The notes under the pieces were generated by a model. That model had not been told where the DNA came from, did no database searches, and worked only from the letters and a program-made list of their open reading frames with translations. A stretch of 64,000 nt of DNA from Polyangium mundeleinium. GTDB taxonomy: Bacteria > Myxococcota_A > Polyangia > Polyangiales > Polyangiaceae. The translations under genes were made by a program, and so were the position numbers. Shown piece by piece: positions 55,005-61,746 of this stretch. The stretch is from positions 1,843,711 through 1,907,710 of the forward strand of contig NZ_JAQNDO010000001.1 in the NCBI RefSeq assembly GCF_028369105.1, given 5' to 3'. Numbering within the stretch: position 1 is the stretch's first letter; every line of letters starts with the position of its first letter.

Positions 55005-55904
55005 GTGCGCGTGTTCTTCTGCGATCACGTGGAGGTCCCGCTTCCGCCTGGGCATCGCTTCCCGATGGCGAAGTACGCACGCCTGCGCGAGCGCCTGCTT
55101 TCAGCGCTCCTGCTCGATCCGACGGACCTCCAGCCTTCCACGCCCGCCTCGATCACCGACCTCGCGCGTGTCCACGCGCCGCACTACCTCGAAGGCTTGC
55201 TCTCGGGCACGCTCGACCCCCGCATCTTGCGCGCCATTGGGTTTCCCTGGTCCGACGCCCTCGTGCGCAGGTCGCGCGCCAGCGTCTCGGGCACCCTCTG
55301 CGCCGGCCGCGCGGCCCTGGAAGACGGCATTTCGGGAAACCTCGCCGGCGGCACGCACCACGCCTTCGCGGATCGCGGCGCTGGATTCTGTGTCTTCAAC
55401 GACATCGCCGTTGCCTGCCGCACCTTGCTCGACGCGGGCGACGTCCGCCGTGTGCTCGTCCTCGACCTCGACGTCCACCAGGGCGACGGCACCGCCTCCC
55501 TTTTCGGAAACGAGCCCCGCGTGTATACGGCCTCGATCCACGGCGAAAAGAATTTCCCTTTTCACAAGCAGCAGAGCGACCTCGACCTCGCGCTCCCGGA
55601 CCAGACGGGCGACGACGAATACCTCGCCGCGCTCGAACCTTTTCTCGCCCGCGCCTTCGCCGAATCGAACCCCGATTTGGTTTTTTTCCAGGGCGGCGTG
55701 GACGCCCTCGCGGCGGACAAACTGGGCCGGCTCGGCATGACGGCGGCGGGCATGCGCAGGCGGGACGAGCGTGTCCTCGGCGAGGCGCGCCGCCGCGGCA
55801 TTCCGATCGCGCTCACCCTGGGCGGTGGATATACCGATCCCATCGACGCGACCCTCGCCGCGCACGTCGGGACGTATGCGGTCGCCCGTGAGGTCTTCGG
55901 ATGA
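55005..55904 (+). CDS. Histone deacetylase-family Zn-dependent deacetylase (AcuC/AphA-like)
   Basis: GGTHHAF...GFCVFNDIA...LDLDVHQGDG...GGGY motifs. GTG start with SD AAGGAGAGG. Confidence 0.85.
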   Translation: MRVFFCDHVEVPLPPGHRFPMAKYARLRERLLSALLLDPTDLQPSTPASITDLARVHAPHYLEGLLSGTLDPRILRAIGFPWSDALVRRSRASVSGTLCAGRAALEDGISGNLAGGTHHAFADRGAGFCVFNDIAVACRTLLDAGDVRRVLVLDLDVHQGDGTASLFGNEPRVYTASIHGEKNFPFHKQQSDLDLALPDQTGDDEYLAALEPFLARAFAESNPDLVFFQGGVDALAADKLGRLGMTAAGMRRRDERVLGEARRRGIPIALTLGGGYTDPIDATLAAHVGTYAVAREVFG

Positions 55905-56257
55905 CGCCCGGACGCATCACGCTGCTCCTCCTCGCGACGTTGCTTTCGGCCTGCCGTGGCGGCGAATCGGCCGACGCGACGCCGACACCGCCCGAGACCA
56001 CGCCGTCGGCCGCGCCCTCGCCCTCGCCCTCACCCTCCATGCCGCGCCGCCCGACGATCCGCCATTACCTCGCGCGCACGGCGGAGCGATGCGAGGTGTA
56101 TTCGGTCGACCGGGACGCCGTCTCCCCGGCCACGCGCACCCCGTGCCCGCCGGATTTGCAGATCGGCGAGCGCATTCGTGTCATGGGGAAATCGTGCATG
56201 CGGGAGGGGAGCACCGAACGGACGCAGCCGGTGGTGTGTCCGGGGGCGCTCTTGTAA
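55901..56257 (+). CDS. Small hypothetical lipoprotein
   Basis: Lipobox LLSAC. ATGA overlap with the deacetylase stop. Confidence 0.45.
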   Translation: MTPGRITLLLLATLLSACRGGESADATPTPPETTPSAAPSPSPSPSMPRRPTIRHYLARTAERCEVYSVDRDAVSPATRTPCPPDLQIGERIRVMGKSCMREGSTERTQPVVCPGALL

Positions 56258-56836
56258 GTAGGCGGCGCGGGCCGCCGACGGTGGATGGCGGGGGCTCCCC
56301 GAATCGAATCGTCGAAACGGTCATGTTTCGCGCGTCCGCCTCTTGTTCTGCCGCCGAACGAGCTTCGCCTCCCCTGGGGGCCCGCCGGCTCTCGTCCCCG
56401 AACGCTTCCCGGTTCCCCGGCCGCCCCCTGTTTCGCGGCAAGCTGTGACCGTCGTCGCGTCCGCCTCCTGTTTTGCTCCGTGAGCCTGTCGGCTCGACCT
56501 CCGGACGGGGATTTTTTCGCGAAACAGCCCCGGGCTTGTCTCGCCGGCCGGCCGTTGTTTCCCGCAACCACGCCGGGACGCGGCCGCAATCCATTGTTGT
56601 TTGCGCCTGAAGCGAGGCGGACCCGCGGACCAATCCTGTCCTGTCGCAAAACGAGTCCCGGCCCGCCGCGCACCTCCTTGTTCGGCAGCCGAACAGGACC
56701 CGTCTCCGGAGGGCGGAGCCAGTCGGGGTTGCTTCGAATGAGGTGTTCGGCGTGGCTTGGCTGTATCGTGAAGATGCGAGCGCCTCATGGGCTCGCTGGT
56801 GGATGTCCTTGGGGCTTTGGGCGTGGGAGGGTGCGC
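56258..56836. promoter_or_regulatory. 579-nt noncoding region with five TGTTT(C/G)(C/G)CG boxes, a TTTCGCGAAA palindrome and three ~32-nt direct repeats (CGCGTCCGCCTCYTGTTYTGC...)
   Basis: Boxes at 56324, 56429, 56515, 56556 and 56598. Long repeats at 56331-56363, 56452-56484 and 56667-56697. No convincing ORF. Confidence 0.35.
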
Positions 56837-57358
56837 ATGAAACGGATCGTCATCGGGGTGCTGCTCGTTTCGATCGCTCTGCCTGCGCCTGGGTGCACGG
56901 AGGACAAGTGCAAGAATCCGGCAAAGAGCAGCGACCGGATCAGAAACATCTGGAGGGATGGGGATGCGATCAAGTGCAACGCGGTCGTGACCTGCCCCGG
57001 TCATGGCGGGCGCCCGGACAACAGGTTTGCGCTTCAGGGCCTTGAGGATCCCACCACCATCGACCAGCATCGCGATGACTGGAACGAGGGCCATTGCAAG
57101 CAGAAGGTCTGGGACCAGCCGTGGTGGAACCCCGAGTGCACGGTCGTGGTGTCTCCGGCGATCAGTTGCCTCGATGTGGATGGGGGATCAGGTGCGCCTG
57201 GGCCCACGCCCACGGGAGGGACCCTGGTCACGGTCGGCGTCGGAGCGGGAAGCGGGGACTACTGGATCACCGAGCAGGGGGTGGGTGGCGCGGGGGGCGT
57301 GGGCGGCGCTGGAGGGTTCAGCGAAGAGCCCGGGGAGGCTGGGCACGGCGGAGAGTAA
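56837..57358 (+). CDS. Small lipoprotein with Cys/Trp-rich core and Gly-rich C-terminus
   Basis: MKRIVIGVLLVSIALPAPGC lipobox. SD GGGAGGG. It lies within the conserved ~47-nt leader also found at 60713. Confidence 0.55.
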   Translation: MKRIVIGVLLVSIALPAPGCTEDKCKNPAKSSDRIRNIWRDGDAIKCNAVVTCPGHGGRPDNRFALQGLEDPTTIDQHRDDWNEGHCKQKVWDQPWWNPECTVVVSPAISCLDVDGGSGAPGPTPTGGTLVTVGVGAGSGDYWITEQGVGGAGGVGGAGGFSEEPGEAGHGGE

Positions 57359-57880
57359 TCACCGCTCAGGAACCGCGCCGGACGAGCCTGAAAGTGGCGA
57401 TTGTCCCGTGGCCTCCCGCAACCTGGCGTACCAATCCGTGCCCGTGAGCGCGGGGCAAAGCGACTCCGTCTTGGTACGAAAACAAGCCAGGAATTCCTGC
57501 TGGTCGATGTTCCTCGACTGGTGCTTTTGTTGCAGCGAATCCTGGCAGCGAGTCCCGGCGATATCGGTGTCGCGCCAGAAGCGAGCCCCCTGCATGTCTT
57601 CGCACGAGGCGCAAAAGACCGGGTCAAGCCCCGTGCAAGGCACCTTCTCCGGGCAGAACGACAGGACGCAGCTCGCCAGGCATGCGTCCATGTACTCTTC
57701 GGTGACGACACGACAATCAACGTGCGTGCAGTACCCCTCGGTCAGCTCTGCGAGGTCCTCGCAAATCTCTTCACGGGTTTGGCCCGTGCCCCTGGGCTCC
57801 CCCCGATACGCCCCCAGCCCCACGGTGACCAGCGCGACGGCAGCGACGGCGATGGCGATGTACGATCCGCGGCGTTTCAT
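57359..57880 (-). CDS. Secreted/membrane-anchored Cys-rich protein, paralog 1
   Basis: N-terminal TM/signal IAIAVAAVALVTVGLGAYRGE. 11 Cys. Shared motifs GARFWRD, TRC, CFRTKTE..CPALTGTDW. The ~60-nt conserved upstream leader is duplicated in the paralog. Confidence 0.6.
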   Translation of the reverse strand: MKRRGSYIAIAVAAVALVTVGLGAYRGEPRGTGQTREEICEDLAELTEGYCTHVDCRVVTEEYMDACLASCVLSFCPEKVPCTGLDPVFCASCEDMQGARFWRDTDIAGTRCQDSLQQKHQSRNIDQQEFLACFRTKTESLCPALTGTDWYARLREATGQSPLSGSSGAVPER

Positions 57881-57960
57881 GGCTGTCTCCCCTGGGCCCC
57901 GACGAGCCTACACCAATCCACCGGGAAAGACGAGCATCTTGCCGCGAAGCACGGGAGAGC

Positions 57961-58461
57961 TCATTGCCCCAGCGCAGTCAGCATCCGCGCGTGCCAGTCG
58001 GTACCGGCGAGCGCCGGACAACGCCGCTCGGTCTCAGTCTTGAAACAGGTGACCCATGCCTCTCGGCTGGGGGCCGGGACCTTCTCGTGAGCGACGGGCG
58101 CTTTGAGCTCGTTGCTACACCGCGTTTCTGCGTTGTTCGCGTCGCGCCAGAAGCGGGCGCCGTGCAGGTCCTCGCACGGCGCTCGCCAGATCGGGTCGGC
58201 GTTGCGGGGTAGCAATGGGGCGTAGTCCGGGCAGTACGTCATCAAGCAACCCGCCTCGCAAGCGTCGGCGAAGTCTTCCGTAATCGCCATACAATGGCCA
58301 AGATGAGCACCCTGCTCGCACATCTCGATGGCGGTATCGAGGTCCGAGAGGCAACTCTCTTCCCCCGTGTAGGGCACTTCCCCCCGATACGCCCCCAGCC
58401 CTACGGCGACGAGCGCGACGGCGGCGACGGCAACGGATAGCATCGATCGGCGGCGTTTCAT
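57961..58461 (-). CDS. Secreted/membrane-anchored Cys-rich protein, paralog 2
   Basis: About 45% identical to paralog 1 with the same N-terminal anchor, conserved Cys pattern and duplicated leader. Confidence 0.6.
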   Translation of the reverse strand: MKRRRSMLSVAVAAVALVAVGLGAYRGEVPYTGEESCLSDLDTAIEMCEQGAHLGHCMAITEDFADACEAGCLMTYCPDYAPLLPRNADPIWRAPCEDLHGARFWRDANNAETRCSNELKAPVAHEKVPAPSREAWVTCFKTETERRCPALAGTDWHARMLTALGQ

Positions 58462-58608
58462 GGCTGTCTCCCCTGGGCCCGGTGAGCCTACACGCGCCCG
58501 CCGGGAAAAACGAGCGCGCTTCGGGGCGGATCGCGTGGCACGGGCACGGGGGGCGTTCCCTGGAAAAACCGTGTCACCCTCCTGCCCCCTGCGGCAAAGA
58601 TCCCGAGC

Positions 58609-59226
58609 ATGACGCCTCGTTCGCAGTCGACCGACTTCCCCGCGGCCATTGCGGCCCTCGTCCCGGACATTCGCCAGCTCGTCATGGGTGCATTGCGGCG
58701 CCAGGGGGCGGATCCGGACCTCGCCGAGGAGCTGATTCAGGAGATCGTCATCACGCTCCTCGGTAGCGCGTCGACCTATCGTCCCGAGCTCGGCGCGCTC
58801 CGGCCGTGGGCGCATGGCGTCGCGATGAATGTGGTGAAGAACCGCCGCCGGAGCCGCGTCGGCTTCAAGGGTGGCGAACGCTCCACGAGCACACGTGCCG
58901 CTGGGCCCTTCCAAGCACCGCCCTATGGGCGTTTCTCCTCGCCGGCGCGCGCCCGGTGCCGCCTTCCCTGGCGCGCGCTGGCCTTCACGTTCCTGCGGTC
59001 CACGTGGCGGCGCAGGCGGAGACGCCGCACGCAGAGGCCCTCGCCCTTCCGGCGCTCTCCCTTGCCACCGAACGCCGCACGCCGACGCCTCCTTCGCCTC
59101 GCCGCGAGGCCCGGCCTCGGCTCCTTTTTCACATCCAGGGCATTACGCCCGGAGACGAAGGGGGTTCGTCCCGGTAATGGACGGCCTTGCAGCATGCGTC
59201 GCGCCGCGTGTACCATGCGGGGATGA
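58609..59226 (+). CDS. ECF-type sigma factor (clear region 2; Arg-rich atypical region 4)
   Basis: DPDLAEELIQEIVITLL...WAHGVAMNVVKNRRR matches Sigma70_r2. The C-terminal LPPNAARRRLLRLAARPGLGS only loosely resembles region 4.2. It is divergent from the Cys-rich paralogs. Confidence 0.5.
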   Translation: MTPRSQSTDFPAAIAALVPDIRQLVMGALRRQGADPDLAEELIQEIVITLLGSASTYRPELGALRPWAHGVAMNVVKNRRRSRVGFKGGERSTSTRAAGPFQAPPYGRFSSPARARCRLPWRALAFTFLRSTWRRRRRRRTQRPSPFRRSPLPPNAARRRLLRLAARPGLGSFFTSRALRPETKGVRPGNGRPCSMRRAACTMRG

Positions 59227-59579
59227 TTCGAGCGTTCGGGGGCCTTTCGTTGTTGGTGGCGCTCGGCGGCGTTGCGAGGGCGGAGACCGGCACCGACGCG
59301 GACGCTGCCGCGGCCGTGCGATTCGAGGCCCTCGCGACGATGGGGGACCGCGCGCGCGCCGCAGGGCGGCTCCGGGAAGCTGCCATCGCGTATGGGCAGG
59401 CGCTGGAGGTGCGGAACGATCCGCTCGTCGCGGGCCGGCTCGGCGTGCTGCTCGTGGAGATGGGCACGCCCGGGCAAAGCCGTTCGGTCTCAGAAGGTGG
59501 GAGACCTCCGGCCCCGCGGACGCGCGGAGCGAGCGAAGAGCGTGTCGGGTCTACAGGCTGGGAAAGCCGAGGAATTTGA
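59223..59579 (+). CDS. Small secreted protein, ATGA-coupled to the ECF sigma gene
   Basis: Signal peptide LVALGGVARA/ETG. It has no cytoplasmic anti-sigma-like domain. Confidence 0.4.
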   Translation: MIRAFGGLSLLVALGGVARAETGTDADAAAAVRFEALATMGDRARAAGRLREAAIAYGQALEVRNDPLVAGRLGVLLVEMGTPGQSRSVSEGGRPPAPRTRGASEERVGSTGWESRGI

Positions 59580-59625
59580 CGAGAGACGTTGTGGACCTGT
59601 ATGTCGGAGTGCGGAGGGAGGACCT

Positions 59626-59997
59626 ATGAAGCTGCTCGCAGGTCTCGGAGCGCTTTTTCTGTACGGTTCGCTCGGTGTCGCGTCGGGCGTGGGTGACATC
59701 CAGCAAGAACCGCCGCCGCCCATGTCGTTGACAACGATGGGAGCCGCGCCCACAGGAGTTGTGCCCGAAGGGGGCGCGGCGGTGCAGGCGGCGGGCTCGA
59801 CAGGACGGCGGCCCGTAATGCTCCAGGAAATGAGCGATGAGGAGAAGGAGCGACGGAGAGAGGAATGCGCAACGTTGTACGAGCACTGCTACGATTGGTG
59901 CGGGAAGGCGCACAAGCGCGGCAGTGCTGCGCTGCGGCGTTGCAATCAGGAGTGCTCGGACAAGAATACAGAGTGCATGAAAAAGATTCCGAACTGA
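59626..59997 (+). CDS. Small secreted protein with C-terminal 6-Cys module
   Basis: SD GGAGGGAGG. Signal peptide, then CATLYEHCYDWCGKAHKRGSAALRRCNQECSDKNTEC. Confidence 0.5.
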   Translation: MKLLAGLGALFLYGSLGVASGVGDIQQEPPPPMSLTTMGAAPTGVVPEGGAAVQAAGSTGRRPVMLQEMSDEEKERRREECATLYEHCYDWCGKAHKRGSAALRRCNQECSDKNTECMKKIPN

Positions 59998-60013
59998 AGC
60001 CACGGCGCACCTG

Positions 60014-60691
60014 ATGGACATCCTGACGACACGAACCCTGCGGTACACCGACGAGGGCGGCGGGACCGAGGAGGATGTGGTTCTCACCATCTTCGTGCCC
60101 TTCGAACAAGACGATGGGCAATGGTTGTGCGTGTTCGATTTCGAACCGCCCATCAAGCCAAGGTTCATGAAGGGGTGCGGCGTCGACATCATCCAGGCAT
60201 TCGTCCACTGCCTGATCTTTGCGCGCCTCTCCTTCGAAACCACACGCTGGTCGAGGACCGGCCATTGGCAAGGATTACGCGACTGCGGCTTGCCCATGAA
60301 CAAGGGTCCCTGGCCGGATCAGCCGCCCGAAATCCCACCACCCGAAGACAACCCCGGAACCCTCGAGGTCTTTGCGACCCGGAGGCTCGGCTGTCCTGAC
60401 GAAACCGGCGCAGCCACGGAGCTTCTCCTCACCGTTTTCAAGCCCTACCAGGCAGAGGGCGACACGTGGAAATGCGCCTTCGCCTTCGGTCCATCCGAGA
60501 CCGCGCCCATTCGCCATGGCACCGGAGCGGACTTCATCGAGGCCGCTCTCGACGGGCTCGCCCTGGCGCGAGCGACCTACGAAAGCATGCTGCCGAAGGG
60601 CTGGGCTCCGGCGTCGGAAAACCTCCTCGATTGTGATGACCTGCCCTTCAAAATCGGGCGGTCGTTCTGGACGGGTGGGCCGACGTCGTAG
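60014..60691 (+). CDS. Cytoplasmic protein composed of two tandem ~85-aa homologous domains
   Basis: Internal repeat VVLTIFVPFEQDDGQWLCVFDF... versus LLLTVFKPYQAEGDTWKCAFAF... No signal peptide. It starts 17 nt after the preceding gene. Confidence 0.55.
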   Translation: MDILTTRTLRYTDEGGGTEEDVVLTIFVPFEQDDGQWLCVFDFEPPIKPRFMKGCGVDIIQAFVHCLIFARLSFETTRWSRTGHWQGLRDCGLPMNKGPWPDQPPEIPPPEDNPGTLEVFATRRLGCPDETGAATELLLTVFKPYQAEGDTWKCAFAFGPSETAPIRHGTGADFIEAALDGLALARATYESMLPKGWAPASENLLDCDDLPFKIGRSFWTGGPTS

Positions 60692-60742
60692 CGCCGAGGA
60701 ACACCGCTTCGTCTCGCCGGTGGATGTCCTTGGGCTTCGGGC

Positions 60743-61641
60743 GTGGGAGGGGGCGCATGCTCGGCGCCAGACGGCTTCTGGCGCGGGGAGTGCGATCCGG
60801 ACCCGTTTTCCCCGAGCGAGCTGTGCCCGGAGCCGCAAGATGCTGGCACCGACGCCGATGCCGATAGCGACGCTGGCCTTGGCACCCCTGGTGCGGATCC
60901 CCAGTCGACGAGCTGTGAGCACGGTGGCGGTCGTTGCGTCCCGGTGCCGAGCGGCGGGGAACATGCGGGATTGTGGAGCAAGGAGCCGATCGCGTTATGG
61001 GTGGGTCCGACGCCCAAGGAAGGGGATCCGCCGCTCGTGTGTCCGAAGGGCACATCGAGCGAGCAATTCCGCCTCTACAGATGGAGGAGCCGTGCCAGCC
61101 CGTGAAGGCGGTGCCGGATTTCACGACGAAGACCGAATGGCAGACGGCAGCGCTCGGGTGTACGGCCAACCTGGACGATGATTCATGCGGTTCGCGCGAG
61201 AAGTCTTGCGTCGCGGATCCGGGGTTCGAGTACCTGCAATGTGTGCACCGGGAAGGGAAGTTCACGCTGGAGGATTGCCCGATGAACTACCGCTATGCGT
61301 GGTATGTGGGGTATCCAGAGAAAGCAGTGGACGATCGCGGGTGCGAGGCGTGCGCGTGCGGGCCCGTCGCGGGGAGTGGTTGTGTGGCTTCGGTCCGGCT
61401 CTACAACGACGCCGCTTGCGCGTCGCAGTTCGAGCAGGGCGGCCTCGCCTCCGGCTACGAGAAGTGCATCAACATCGTCGCGCCCGGCCGGGCCCTCGGA
61501 GCCAAAGCGATCACGGATCTCGCCTACGTGCCTGGCGAATGCGCGAGCAGCGGCGGCACGCCCACCGGGGCGGCGACGCGGGACGCCACCGGCGCGGTGA
61601 CGTTCTGCTGCCTCGGGCCGTTTTACCTCGACATCAACTGA
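60743..61641 (+). pseudogene. Frameshifted/decayed Cys-rich secreted-protein gene sharing the leader of the 56837 lipoprotein
   Basis: The conserved leader ATG at 60757 opens only a 36-aa frame. A protein-like reading needs the GTG frame 60743-61105 plus a +1 shift near 61040-61060 into the 60934-61641 frame (Cys/Trp/Tyr-rich, ending FCCLGPFYLDIN). Confidence 0.4.
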
Positions 61642-61746
61642 ACACGGCCCCGCGCACCTCGTGCCCGCCGGATTTGCAGATGAGCGCCTCGCTGGCCTGG
61701 GGTGCAGTATGGGGCAACGCCCGAGCTCCGCGCCTGCACGAAGCCG

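Follow-up and report, generated by a model that had tools for sequence, protein, structure and literature searches.

How two adjacent genes for small, cysteine-rich proteins came to stand behind almost the same leader, what their products do, and whether the neighboring gene for an extracytoplasmic function (ECF) sigma factor controls them are the questions raised by a locus in Polyangium mundeleinium (contig NZ_JAQNDO010000001.1), considered here within a stretch of 64,000 nucleotides (the window). The two genes, designated A and B, had been read in a preliminary description of this DNA as a duplicated pair that may encode a secreted effector or signaling family under ECF control. The explanation that accounts best for the evidence as a whole, and to which a probability of roughly 55% is assigned, is that A and B are ancient paralogues of one protein family (named family X here), that X and a lipoprotein family, Y, would constitute a binary envelope module, that the shared leader would be an element read by a factor acting in trans, and that the tandem probably arose by recombination. 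Comparison of the loci found shows X and Y to be two orphan families, both cysteine-rich and both apparently exported, that are inherited as a unit.

Both open reading frames (ORFs) of the proposed tandem pair were recovered, and their products are 45% identical (E 4e-37, BLASTP), in agreement with their description as paralogues. The product of A corresponds at 100% identity to a hypothetical protein of P. mundeleinium (P0001), and that of B is likewise annotated as a hypothetical protein (WP_271916466.1). Every one of the sequence motifs that had been quoted for the pair, VAAVALV.VGLGAYRGE, GARFWRD, TRC and CF.T.TE..CPAL.GTDW.AR, was found in both proteins, while the cysteine count of 10-11 each had to be corrected to 12 in A and 10 in B. 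A near-identical N-terminal signal segment is common to the two proteins, and at the nucleotide level the first 84 positions of the coding sequences are identical at 70/84, compared with ~55% identity over the remainder. A and B are genuine genes rather than spurious GC-rich ORFs, because they have homologues in 56 clusters, ratios of nonsynonymous to synonymous substitution (dN/dS) below 1 (0.53-0.66 for A against its orthologues and 0.31-0.44 for B), a GC content at third codon positions (GC3) of 0.77-0.79, ribosome-binding sites and a confident AlphaFold2 (AF2) model.

That A and B belong to no recognized family held up when it was tested against Pfam, NCBIfam, PADLOC, PHROGs and the sequences and folds of the PDB, where no described family was matched. 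At E <= 1, the only match of A or B to a Pfam or NCBIfam model was one of A to DUF4148 (E 0.046), which lies below the cut-off and was rejected because it spans the signal peptide only. PADLOC gave no match and PHROGs no meaningful one, a profile search of PDB sequences returned nothing for X, and the AF2 model of X had no fold match in the PDB. When 1.84 billion representatives were searched exhaustively with a profile at a cut-off of E <= 1e-3, only 56 of them (clusters at 50% identity) were retrieved, one of which is spurious, namely a frog futsch-like repeat protein of 3288 aa (P0066). Members that carry an organism name come from Polyangium only, and the remainder are unnamed metagenome sequences. 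The literature found on Polyangium cysteine-rich lipoproteins and on P. mundeleinium consists of genome and taxonomy papers only and contains nothing on family X.

Across the whole of family X, the GARFW and CPALxGTDW motifs and the conserved cysteines are kept and one domain is retained. A subtype, X', which occupies loci L016-L018, has ~33% protein identity to A. Three proteins from metagenomes, Polyangium sp. 6x1 and P. fumosum (P0015, P0016/P0090 and P0017) are X-X fusions with two tandem X domains each. These fusions mirror the B-A gene tandem and hint at a paired mode of action for X proteins.

The conserved partner of X, overlooked by the preliminary description, is the lipoprotein Y. 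Family Y comprises 22 clusters and has the same range as X (Polyangium and metagenomes). The Y protein of the window has six invariant cysteines and a core of beta structure and one helix that is confidently modeled by AF2 (residues 22-115); its tail is disordered, acidic and rich in Gly, and contains the near-invariant GGTLVTVGVGAGSGDY motif. Loci L007, L009, L010/11/12, L002, L004, L006 and L013 have Y and X in convergent orientation, and a search started from Y led to three further loci (L016-L018), at which Y and X' are co-directional and 83 nt apart; one of these, L017, has an additional convergent X besides the Y-X' pair. Pairing with Y was found at nine of the 11 evaluable X loci, and pairing with X at all 12 of the Y loci seen. 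X and Y also diverge in step, their distance matrices over 11 modules being correlated (r = 0.74, Mantel p ~2e-4, with paralogous modules of one genome included). One metagenome protein (P0058) has a Y-like N-terminus joined to an X domain, although its match is weak (E 0.0024). On the preferred explanation, X and a membrane-tethered Y would act together by direct binding, as the two halves of an envelope module.

In the window, not a single nucleotide separates the stop codon of Y (TAA at 57356-57358) from that of A (complement of TGA at 57359-57361); the corresponding gap is also 0 nt in P. sorediatum and is 13-48 nt at other loci. Because there is no spacer, the convergent transcripts must overlap, and antisense interference between them is possible. 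L007 and L009 share the TATCGT hexamer and the inverted repeat that lie upstream of Y, L010 keeps them in part, and the repeat could be either a hairpin of the 5' untranslated region (UTR) or an operator. As a separate observation, the GGTLVTVGVGAGSGDY stretch of the Y tail (residues ~126-142) resembles the end of the A and B signals, ALVTVGLGAYRGE (residues ~16-28), in the pattern LVTVG[LV]GA, with weak local matches of hidden Markov models (E 0.015-0.1 in a set of 66 sequences); the likeness may be due to chance or to a shared recognition or cleavage site.

Exported protein and lipoprotein might alternatively be opponents rather than partners. On this rather unlikely alternative, X and Y would be a conflict pair, with Y as a lipoprotein effector bearing a Gly-zipper-like tail and X as the periplasmic immunity protein, or else the secreted toxin would be X, with immunity conferred by Y; the 5' module of X would serve as a recombination handle. 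There are several diverged modules per genome, dN/dS is elevated (0.3-0.66), the GC content of the module region (0.64-0.67) lies below that of its flanks (0.70-0.77), the neighboring genes are decayed or variable and include immunity-like DUF6968 and deaminase-like genes, and some X copies lack Y. Under the preferred explanation as well, these features suggest that the role of X-Y is accessory, and possibly competitive, rather than housekeeping. Apparent insertion of the B cassette at the shared 5' module also fits a conflict pair, as do the X-X tandems and fusions; X copies without Y, set against the finding that every Y seen lies beside an X, resemble orphan immunity genes. However, no toxin, immunity or defense match was obtained from Pfam, NCBIfam or PADLOC, X and Y each keep a single conserved domain with no swapped C-terminal toxin domains, toxin-immunity operons are not typically convergent, the module has no linked genes for secretion or delivery, and a toxic X is hard to reconcile with intact X copies that have no Y. 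A related possibility, judged unlikely, is that X-Y is an unrecognized, Polyangium-specific envelope system for conflict or recognition, in which X would neutralize or receive Y with its GGTLVTVGVGAGSGDY tail and the 5' module would be both a regulatory site and a handle for moving and stacking X cassettes, with the B-A tandem and the X-X fusions as instances.

Polyangium-type X proteins begin with M-K/T-R-R-x and continue into a hydrophobic stretch that closes in GLGA. The stretch starts at residue 8 (MKRRGSY/IAIAV...), with ~5 residues predicted in the cytoplasm. Distant members of the family carry classical lipoboxes in place of the GLGA signal, and for this reason the X domain is predicted to be extracytoplasmic across the family. 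Although the UniRef name of both A and B is lipoprotein, neither has a lipobox ([LVI][ASTVI][GAS]C at the end of the signal): the signal closes with ...VGLGA/YRGE, and no cysteine occurs before residue 40 of A or residue 37 of B.

Cysteines number 10 or 12 in the signal-type X proteins, with one extra in the lipoprotein type. C51 and C71 are both present in 49 sequences and both absent in 2, with no discordant case; C56 and C67 are both present in 48 and both absent in 2, with 1 discordant case; and C82 and C90 of A are both missing from B-type proteins. Even counts and loss in pairs favor disulfides over metal ligation as the role of the X cysteines, and predicted disulfides in turn argue for an extracytoplasmic location. 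X is probably exported via the Sec pathway, cut after GLGA and oxidized in the periplasm, and the exported, cysteine-rich nature that had been proposed for A and B is supported in this respect. The AF2 model of A is all-alpha and has a mean predicted local distance difference test (pLDDT) score of 78, with 83 residues at pLDDT >= 90 and averages of 79-97 for 10-residue blocks over positions 41-160. According to the model, the N-terminal basic and hydrophobic segment is followed by an all-helical domain of ~125 residues with seven helices and 5-6 putative disulfides, in which the cysteine pair C67-x3-C71 is spaced by one helical turn.

Ligation of a cluster by these cysteines, in a cofactor- or metal-binding protein that is exported by twin-arginine translocation (Tat) or anchored in the membrane, is quite unlikely as an account of X. 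The arginine pair is invariant or nearly so in signal-type X proteins, a basic residue stands after GLGA, and a C-x3-C-x4-C-P motif recalls the CxxxCP motif of ferredoxins. Tat substrates have an (S/T)RRxFLK motif, a weakly hydrophobic region and a basic region after it; of the motif, X has only RRxx-aromatic/aliphatic. Against such a protein, the hydrophobic region of X is strongly hydrophobic and Sec-like, and the distant X members are lipoproteins with ordinary lipoboxes. Paired loss and even numbers of cysteines likewise disfavor a cluster, no His or Met is conserved in X, and the helical-bundle model is unlike iron-sulfur folds.

The history of the tandem can be read from the divergence of its members. 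A-type proteins (P0004, P0005, P0007 and others) and B-type proteins (P0002, P0003 and P0006) form separate subfamilies, and B of the window groups with the B type. Between the two types, synonymous divergence (dS) in the mature part is saturated, at 1.2-1.5, and in Polyangium sp. y55x31 an A-type and a B-type gene lie on different contigs; both findings show that neither of the two genes is a recent copy of the other. Judged by this divergence, they are anciently separated subtypes that predate Polyangium speciation. Homology of the window to B-type loci extends from 58535, ~75 nt 5' of the B start codon, to 57958, 3 nt beyond the stop codon, and the DNA distal to the B promoter is orthologous to the spacer between the sigma gene and A in y55x31. 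The simplest history would be that the B-A tandem was produced when a complete B-type cassette, reaching from its 5' module to its stop codon, entered by recombination at the conserved 5' module of A.

A near-identical leader does precede both genes, as had been described, with 46 of the 55 positions before the start codon identical (84%). The pattern GCTCGTYTT-N13-GTGTAGGCT has exactly two matches in the window, one ahead of A and one ahead of B, against a chance expectation of 0.05. At the X loci that share its register, the element takes the form CTCG(Y)(S)-N18-TAGnnT, the first letters of CTCG and TAG being 24 nt apart. This spacing puts CTCGYS at ~-36 and GGTGTAGnnT at the -10 position; a predicted UTR of ~18-20 nt, in which the GGGGAG ribosome-binding site lies, comes next, and the whole layout would suit a promoter. 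TAnnnT is a hallmark of sigma-70-type -10 elements. A terminator scan gave a single terminator-like site, inside A and at chance level.

Both blocks of the element stand ahead of X genes in P. sorediatum (L007), ahead of the A-type and B-type genes of y55x31 (L001 and L003), in a metagenome-assembled genome (L002) and in a soil metagenome (L010), even though the flanks of these loci are otherwise unrelated. Diverged versions in the same register precede the P. fumosum copies (L004 and L006) and the X genes of L013 and L014, the convergent X of L017 has a looser match ahead of it, shifted by ~3 nt from that register, and the 83-nt spacers preceding X' in L016-L018 also contain the element. The claim that the duplication included the regulatory region therefore fell, since the leader is a family-wide element, present ahead of every X gene examined, that also occurs in unrelated contexts and before X'. 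A metagenome scan with the promoter motif returned, among the matches listed, mostly chance matches from unrelated and mostly lower-GC contigs, with one true X locus among them (L034, on the same contig as L011). On the preferred explanation, transcription of X would depend on a trans-encoded factor that reads this conserved element and not on the adjacent sigma gene.

The sigma gene itself proved to be a remnant. A sigma gene does adjoin B divergently, as the preliminary description had it, but the gene is broken, with region 2 kept and region 4 lacking. The ORF at 58609-59226 on the forward strand matches only Sigma70_r2 in Pfam and NCBIfam, continues after region 2 with ~120 out-of-frame residues, and lies in a locus that encodes region 4 in no frame. 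Besides region 2, its y55x31 orthologue has region 4 and, at the C-terminus, an extension that includes a hydrophobic segment. In comparison with this orthologue (L008), ~340 nt are missing from the window gene by three-frame comparison and blastn, which aligned window 58379-58845 with L008 8077-7621 and window 58839-59476 with L008 7281-6638; past the deletion junction, the window gene runs on in a different frame. In y55x31, a stop codon interrupts the reading frame behind region 2 and gene calling divides the sequence in two, and the P. sorediatum gene is almost completely lost. A sigma neighbor is found only at the orthologous A locus (the window and L008) and at none of L002, L009, L010, L013 and L016-L018. 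The NCBI label of WP_271916467.1, 'RNA polymerase sigma factor', is corrected by these observations, as region 4 is lacking.

These findings make it very improbable that A and B are effectors or signaling proteins expressed from ECF promoters under the divergent sigma factor and produced by recent tandem duplication of a gene with its promoter. The region 2 ORF lies on the opposite strand, 147 nt away on the upstream side of B, and bears the sigma factor label at NCBI, the sigma-X arrangement is also seen in y55x31, and leader block 1 contains CGTC. This tetranucleotide is a frequent core of ECF -10 elements. Control of A and B by the adjacent gene is nonetheless unsupported, because that gene is decayed, with region 4 deleted and the frame shifted, and because it is absent at other X loci. 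X promoters are conserved in all three species even though the sigma gene is stopped in y55x31 and lost in P. sorediatum, the leader also precedes X genes that have no sigma neighbor (L002, L003/L009, L010, L013 and L016-L018), no GGAAC-type -35 sequence stands at the proper distance in the X leader, and the mature-part dS of 1.2-1.5 is not that of recent copies.

Conservation of the 5' module extends into the coding sequence, where the 28 signal-peptide codons have a dS of 0.18-0.29, 5-7-fold below that of the mature part. It is hardly credible that the leader and 5' coding segment form a structured RNA element (riboswitch, attenuator, thermometer or the like). Nucleotides are conserved even at synonymous sites, and C-rich and G-rich tracts could pair. 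However, a scan of 56500-58800 gave no Rfam match at E <= 1, the covariation term computed by RNAalifold was positive and no pair was compensatory, shuffled sequences fold better than the native 5' regions (z ~+2.9 in 3/4 for the native ones), and the predicted 5' UTR is only ~18-20 nt long. Low dS in the signal codons might possibly stem from pressure to keep the start of translation free of structure, or from gene conversion now and then. Both y55x31 copies have a TCT Ser codon where others carry a TAT Tyr codon, which hints at conversion. Recent conversion between A and B within a genome was also considered as the source of the shared 5' module and was not clearly supported, as the B signal is the most divergent and the 5' distances are not clustered by genome.

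Several points weigh against the binary module and its control in trans. X occurs without Y in three places, namely window B, which is followed by A, L014, and L008 of y55x31, where only a C-terminal remnant of Y lies beside A; not every X copy therefore requires a Y. Shared species history accounts for part of the correlation between X and Y distances. The arginine pair and the basic residue just after GLGA could mean Tat export or an uncleaved anchor. The upstream block of the element is atypical of a -35 sequence, resembling neither TTGACA nor the ECF GGAAC motif, and a scan with a simple sigma-70 promoter consensus reported no promoter; an ECF sigma factor encoded elsewhere could read the element. 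Expression, export, cleavage and disulfide formation of X, as well as its contact with Y, are all deduced from sequence.

If the preferred explanation holds, X and Y would be two new protein families, each with a fold without a solved relative, that make up a conserved two-gene envelope module. Polyangium species have very large genomes and display social and predatory behavior. Conservation of a cis element before paralogues with ~33% protein identity points to a dedicated regulator or sigma factor, and a 5' promoter and signal cassette has stayed near-constant while the mature domains behind it diverged to saturation. The families and folds are new, the architecture of an exported protein with a lipoprotein is ordinary, and lineage-restricted exported hypothetical proteins are common.

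The coordinates of the module and of its surroundings are collected in Table 1. On the far side of the sigma remnant, homology to L008 ends at ~59476, where a segment of lower GC content starts (~59480-61700, GC 0.60-0.67). This segment is absent from the orthologous y55x31 and P. sorediatum loci and encodes three proteins. On the other side of the module, the small lipoprotein gene that precedes Y has counterparts in gene calls of like size and position in P. sorediatum and y55x31 (125-126 aa, no Pfam match). At other loci, the neighbors differ. In the metagenome contig L014 (981-2563), the place of Y after X is taken by a fragment of deaminase-like sequence (GHAEANIV...PICSNCANII), together with several unannotated small genes that have the look of immunity cassettes. 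Upstream of the Y-X' pairs of y55x31 and P. jinanense, and divergent from them, lies a gene for a conserved, cytoplasmic-looking protein of 164 aa (MSNVAAKPY..., no Pfam match; L016 3000-3494 and L017 2912-3406).

Table 1. Features of the X-Y locus and its surroundings, in window coordinates.
Feature	Position	Strand	Remarks
Small lipoprotein gene	55901-56257	+	118 aa; Pro/Ser/Thr-rich linker, 5 Cys; between Y and a histone-deacetylase-family gene
Conserved upstream region of Y	56700-56836	+	conserved in a four-locus alignment
-10-like TATCGT upstream of Y	56764-56769	+	
Inverted repeat GCGAGC-N9-GCTCGC upstream of Y	56776-56796	+	
Gene Y, lipoprotein	56837-57358	+	ORF; lipobox LPAPG/C; convergent with A
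Gene A (X family, A-type)	57359-57880	-	ORF; 173 aa; predicted signal/anchor residues 1-24; predicted helical 12-Cys domain ~35-160
5' cis module of A	57881-57946	-	homology to A-orthologue promoters of L007/L008 begins at 57946
A ribosome-binding site GGGGAG	57892-57887	-	6 nt ahead of ATG
A predicted transcription start	near 57898	-	predicted
A block 2 GTGTAGGCT	57913-57905	-	TAGGCT at 57910-57905
A block 1 GCTCGTCTT	57935-57927	-	
Gene B (X family, B-type)	57961-58461	-	ORF; 166 aa; 10 Cys
5' cis module of B	58462-58535	-	leader comparison and homology to B-type loci
B ribosome-binding site	58473-58468	-	
B block 2 GTGTAGGCT	58493-58485	-	
B block 1 GCTCGTTTT	58515-58507	-	
ECF sigma pseudogene	58609-59177	+	region 2 in frame 0 to ~58845; deletion junction 58839-58845; remnant of C-terminal extension in another frame to 59177
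N-terminal remnant of secreted protein (MIRAFGG...LVEMGTP)	59223-59476	+	intact in y55x31, 408 aa (L008 5665-6891)
Small secreted Cys-rich protein	ends at 59997		lower-GC segment
Protein with two DUF6968 domains	60014-60691		E 1.4e-21
Cys-rich protein	60934-61641		similar at its C-terminus to the C-terminus of a 402-aa L018 lipoprotein

Among known systems, the modules of ECF sigma and anti-sigma factors offer one comparison, as X is small, single-pass or exported, is encoded beside an ECF sigma gene and has a predicted extracytoplasmic C-terminal domain. Anti-sigma factors of class I, zf-HC2 or RskA type have a cytoplasmic domain of ~50-90 residues before the transmembrane segment, whereas the cytoplasmic part of X would comprise only ~5 residues and Pfam and NCBIfam gave no match to such a domain at E <= 1. 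X is also divergent from the sigma gene and not co-transcribed with it, and the sigma gene is a pseudogene found at one orthologous locus only. As members of an ECF regulon, A and B would be expected to have a cognate sigma factor with regions 2 and 4, whereas that of their locus is without region 4. ECF-type promoters have an AAC-containing -35 sequence such as GGAAC, a spacer of ~16-17 nt and a CGT-type -10 sequence; in the X element, CTCG(Y)(S)-N18-TAGnnT, the -10 is TAnnnT-like and the -35 is not GGAAC, but it could be a non-canonical ECF motif read by a sigma factor encoded elsewhere.

The cysteine-rich repeat and MYXO-CTERM proteins of Myxococcus come from the same taxon as X and are likewise exported and cysteine-rich. 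However, X is helical and non-repetitive in the model, the Y tail is without the hydrophobic and basic MYXO-CTERM end, and A, B and Y matched none of the corresponding Pfam and NCBIfam models at E <= 1. Polymorphic toxin-immunity systems differ in that X has no toxin or immunity domain recognizable by Pfam, NCBIfam or PADLOC and no variable toxin tip. Pairs of a periplasmic effector and an immunity lipoprotein are known, as are pore-forming colicins with convergent immunity genes. From these pairs X-Y differs in having no toxin or immunity homology and no linked secretion system and in keeping single domains, but it shares with them the combination of an exported protein and a lipoprotein, a compatible convergent arrangement, occurrence in multiple copies, fast evolution and restriction to a lineage.

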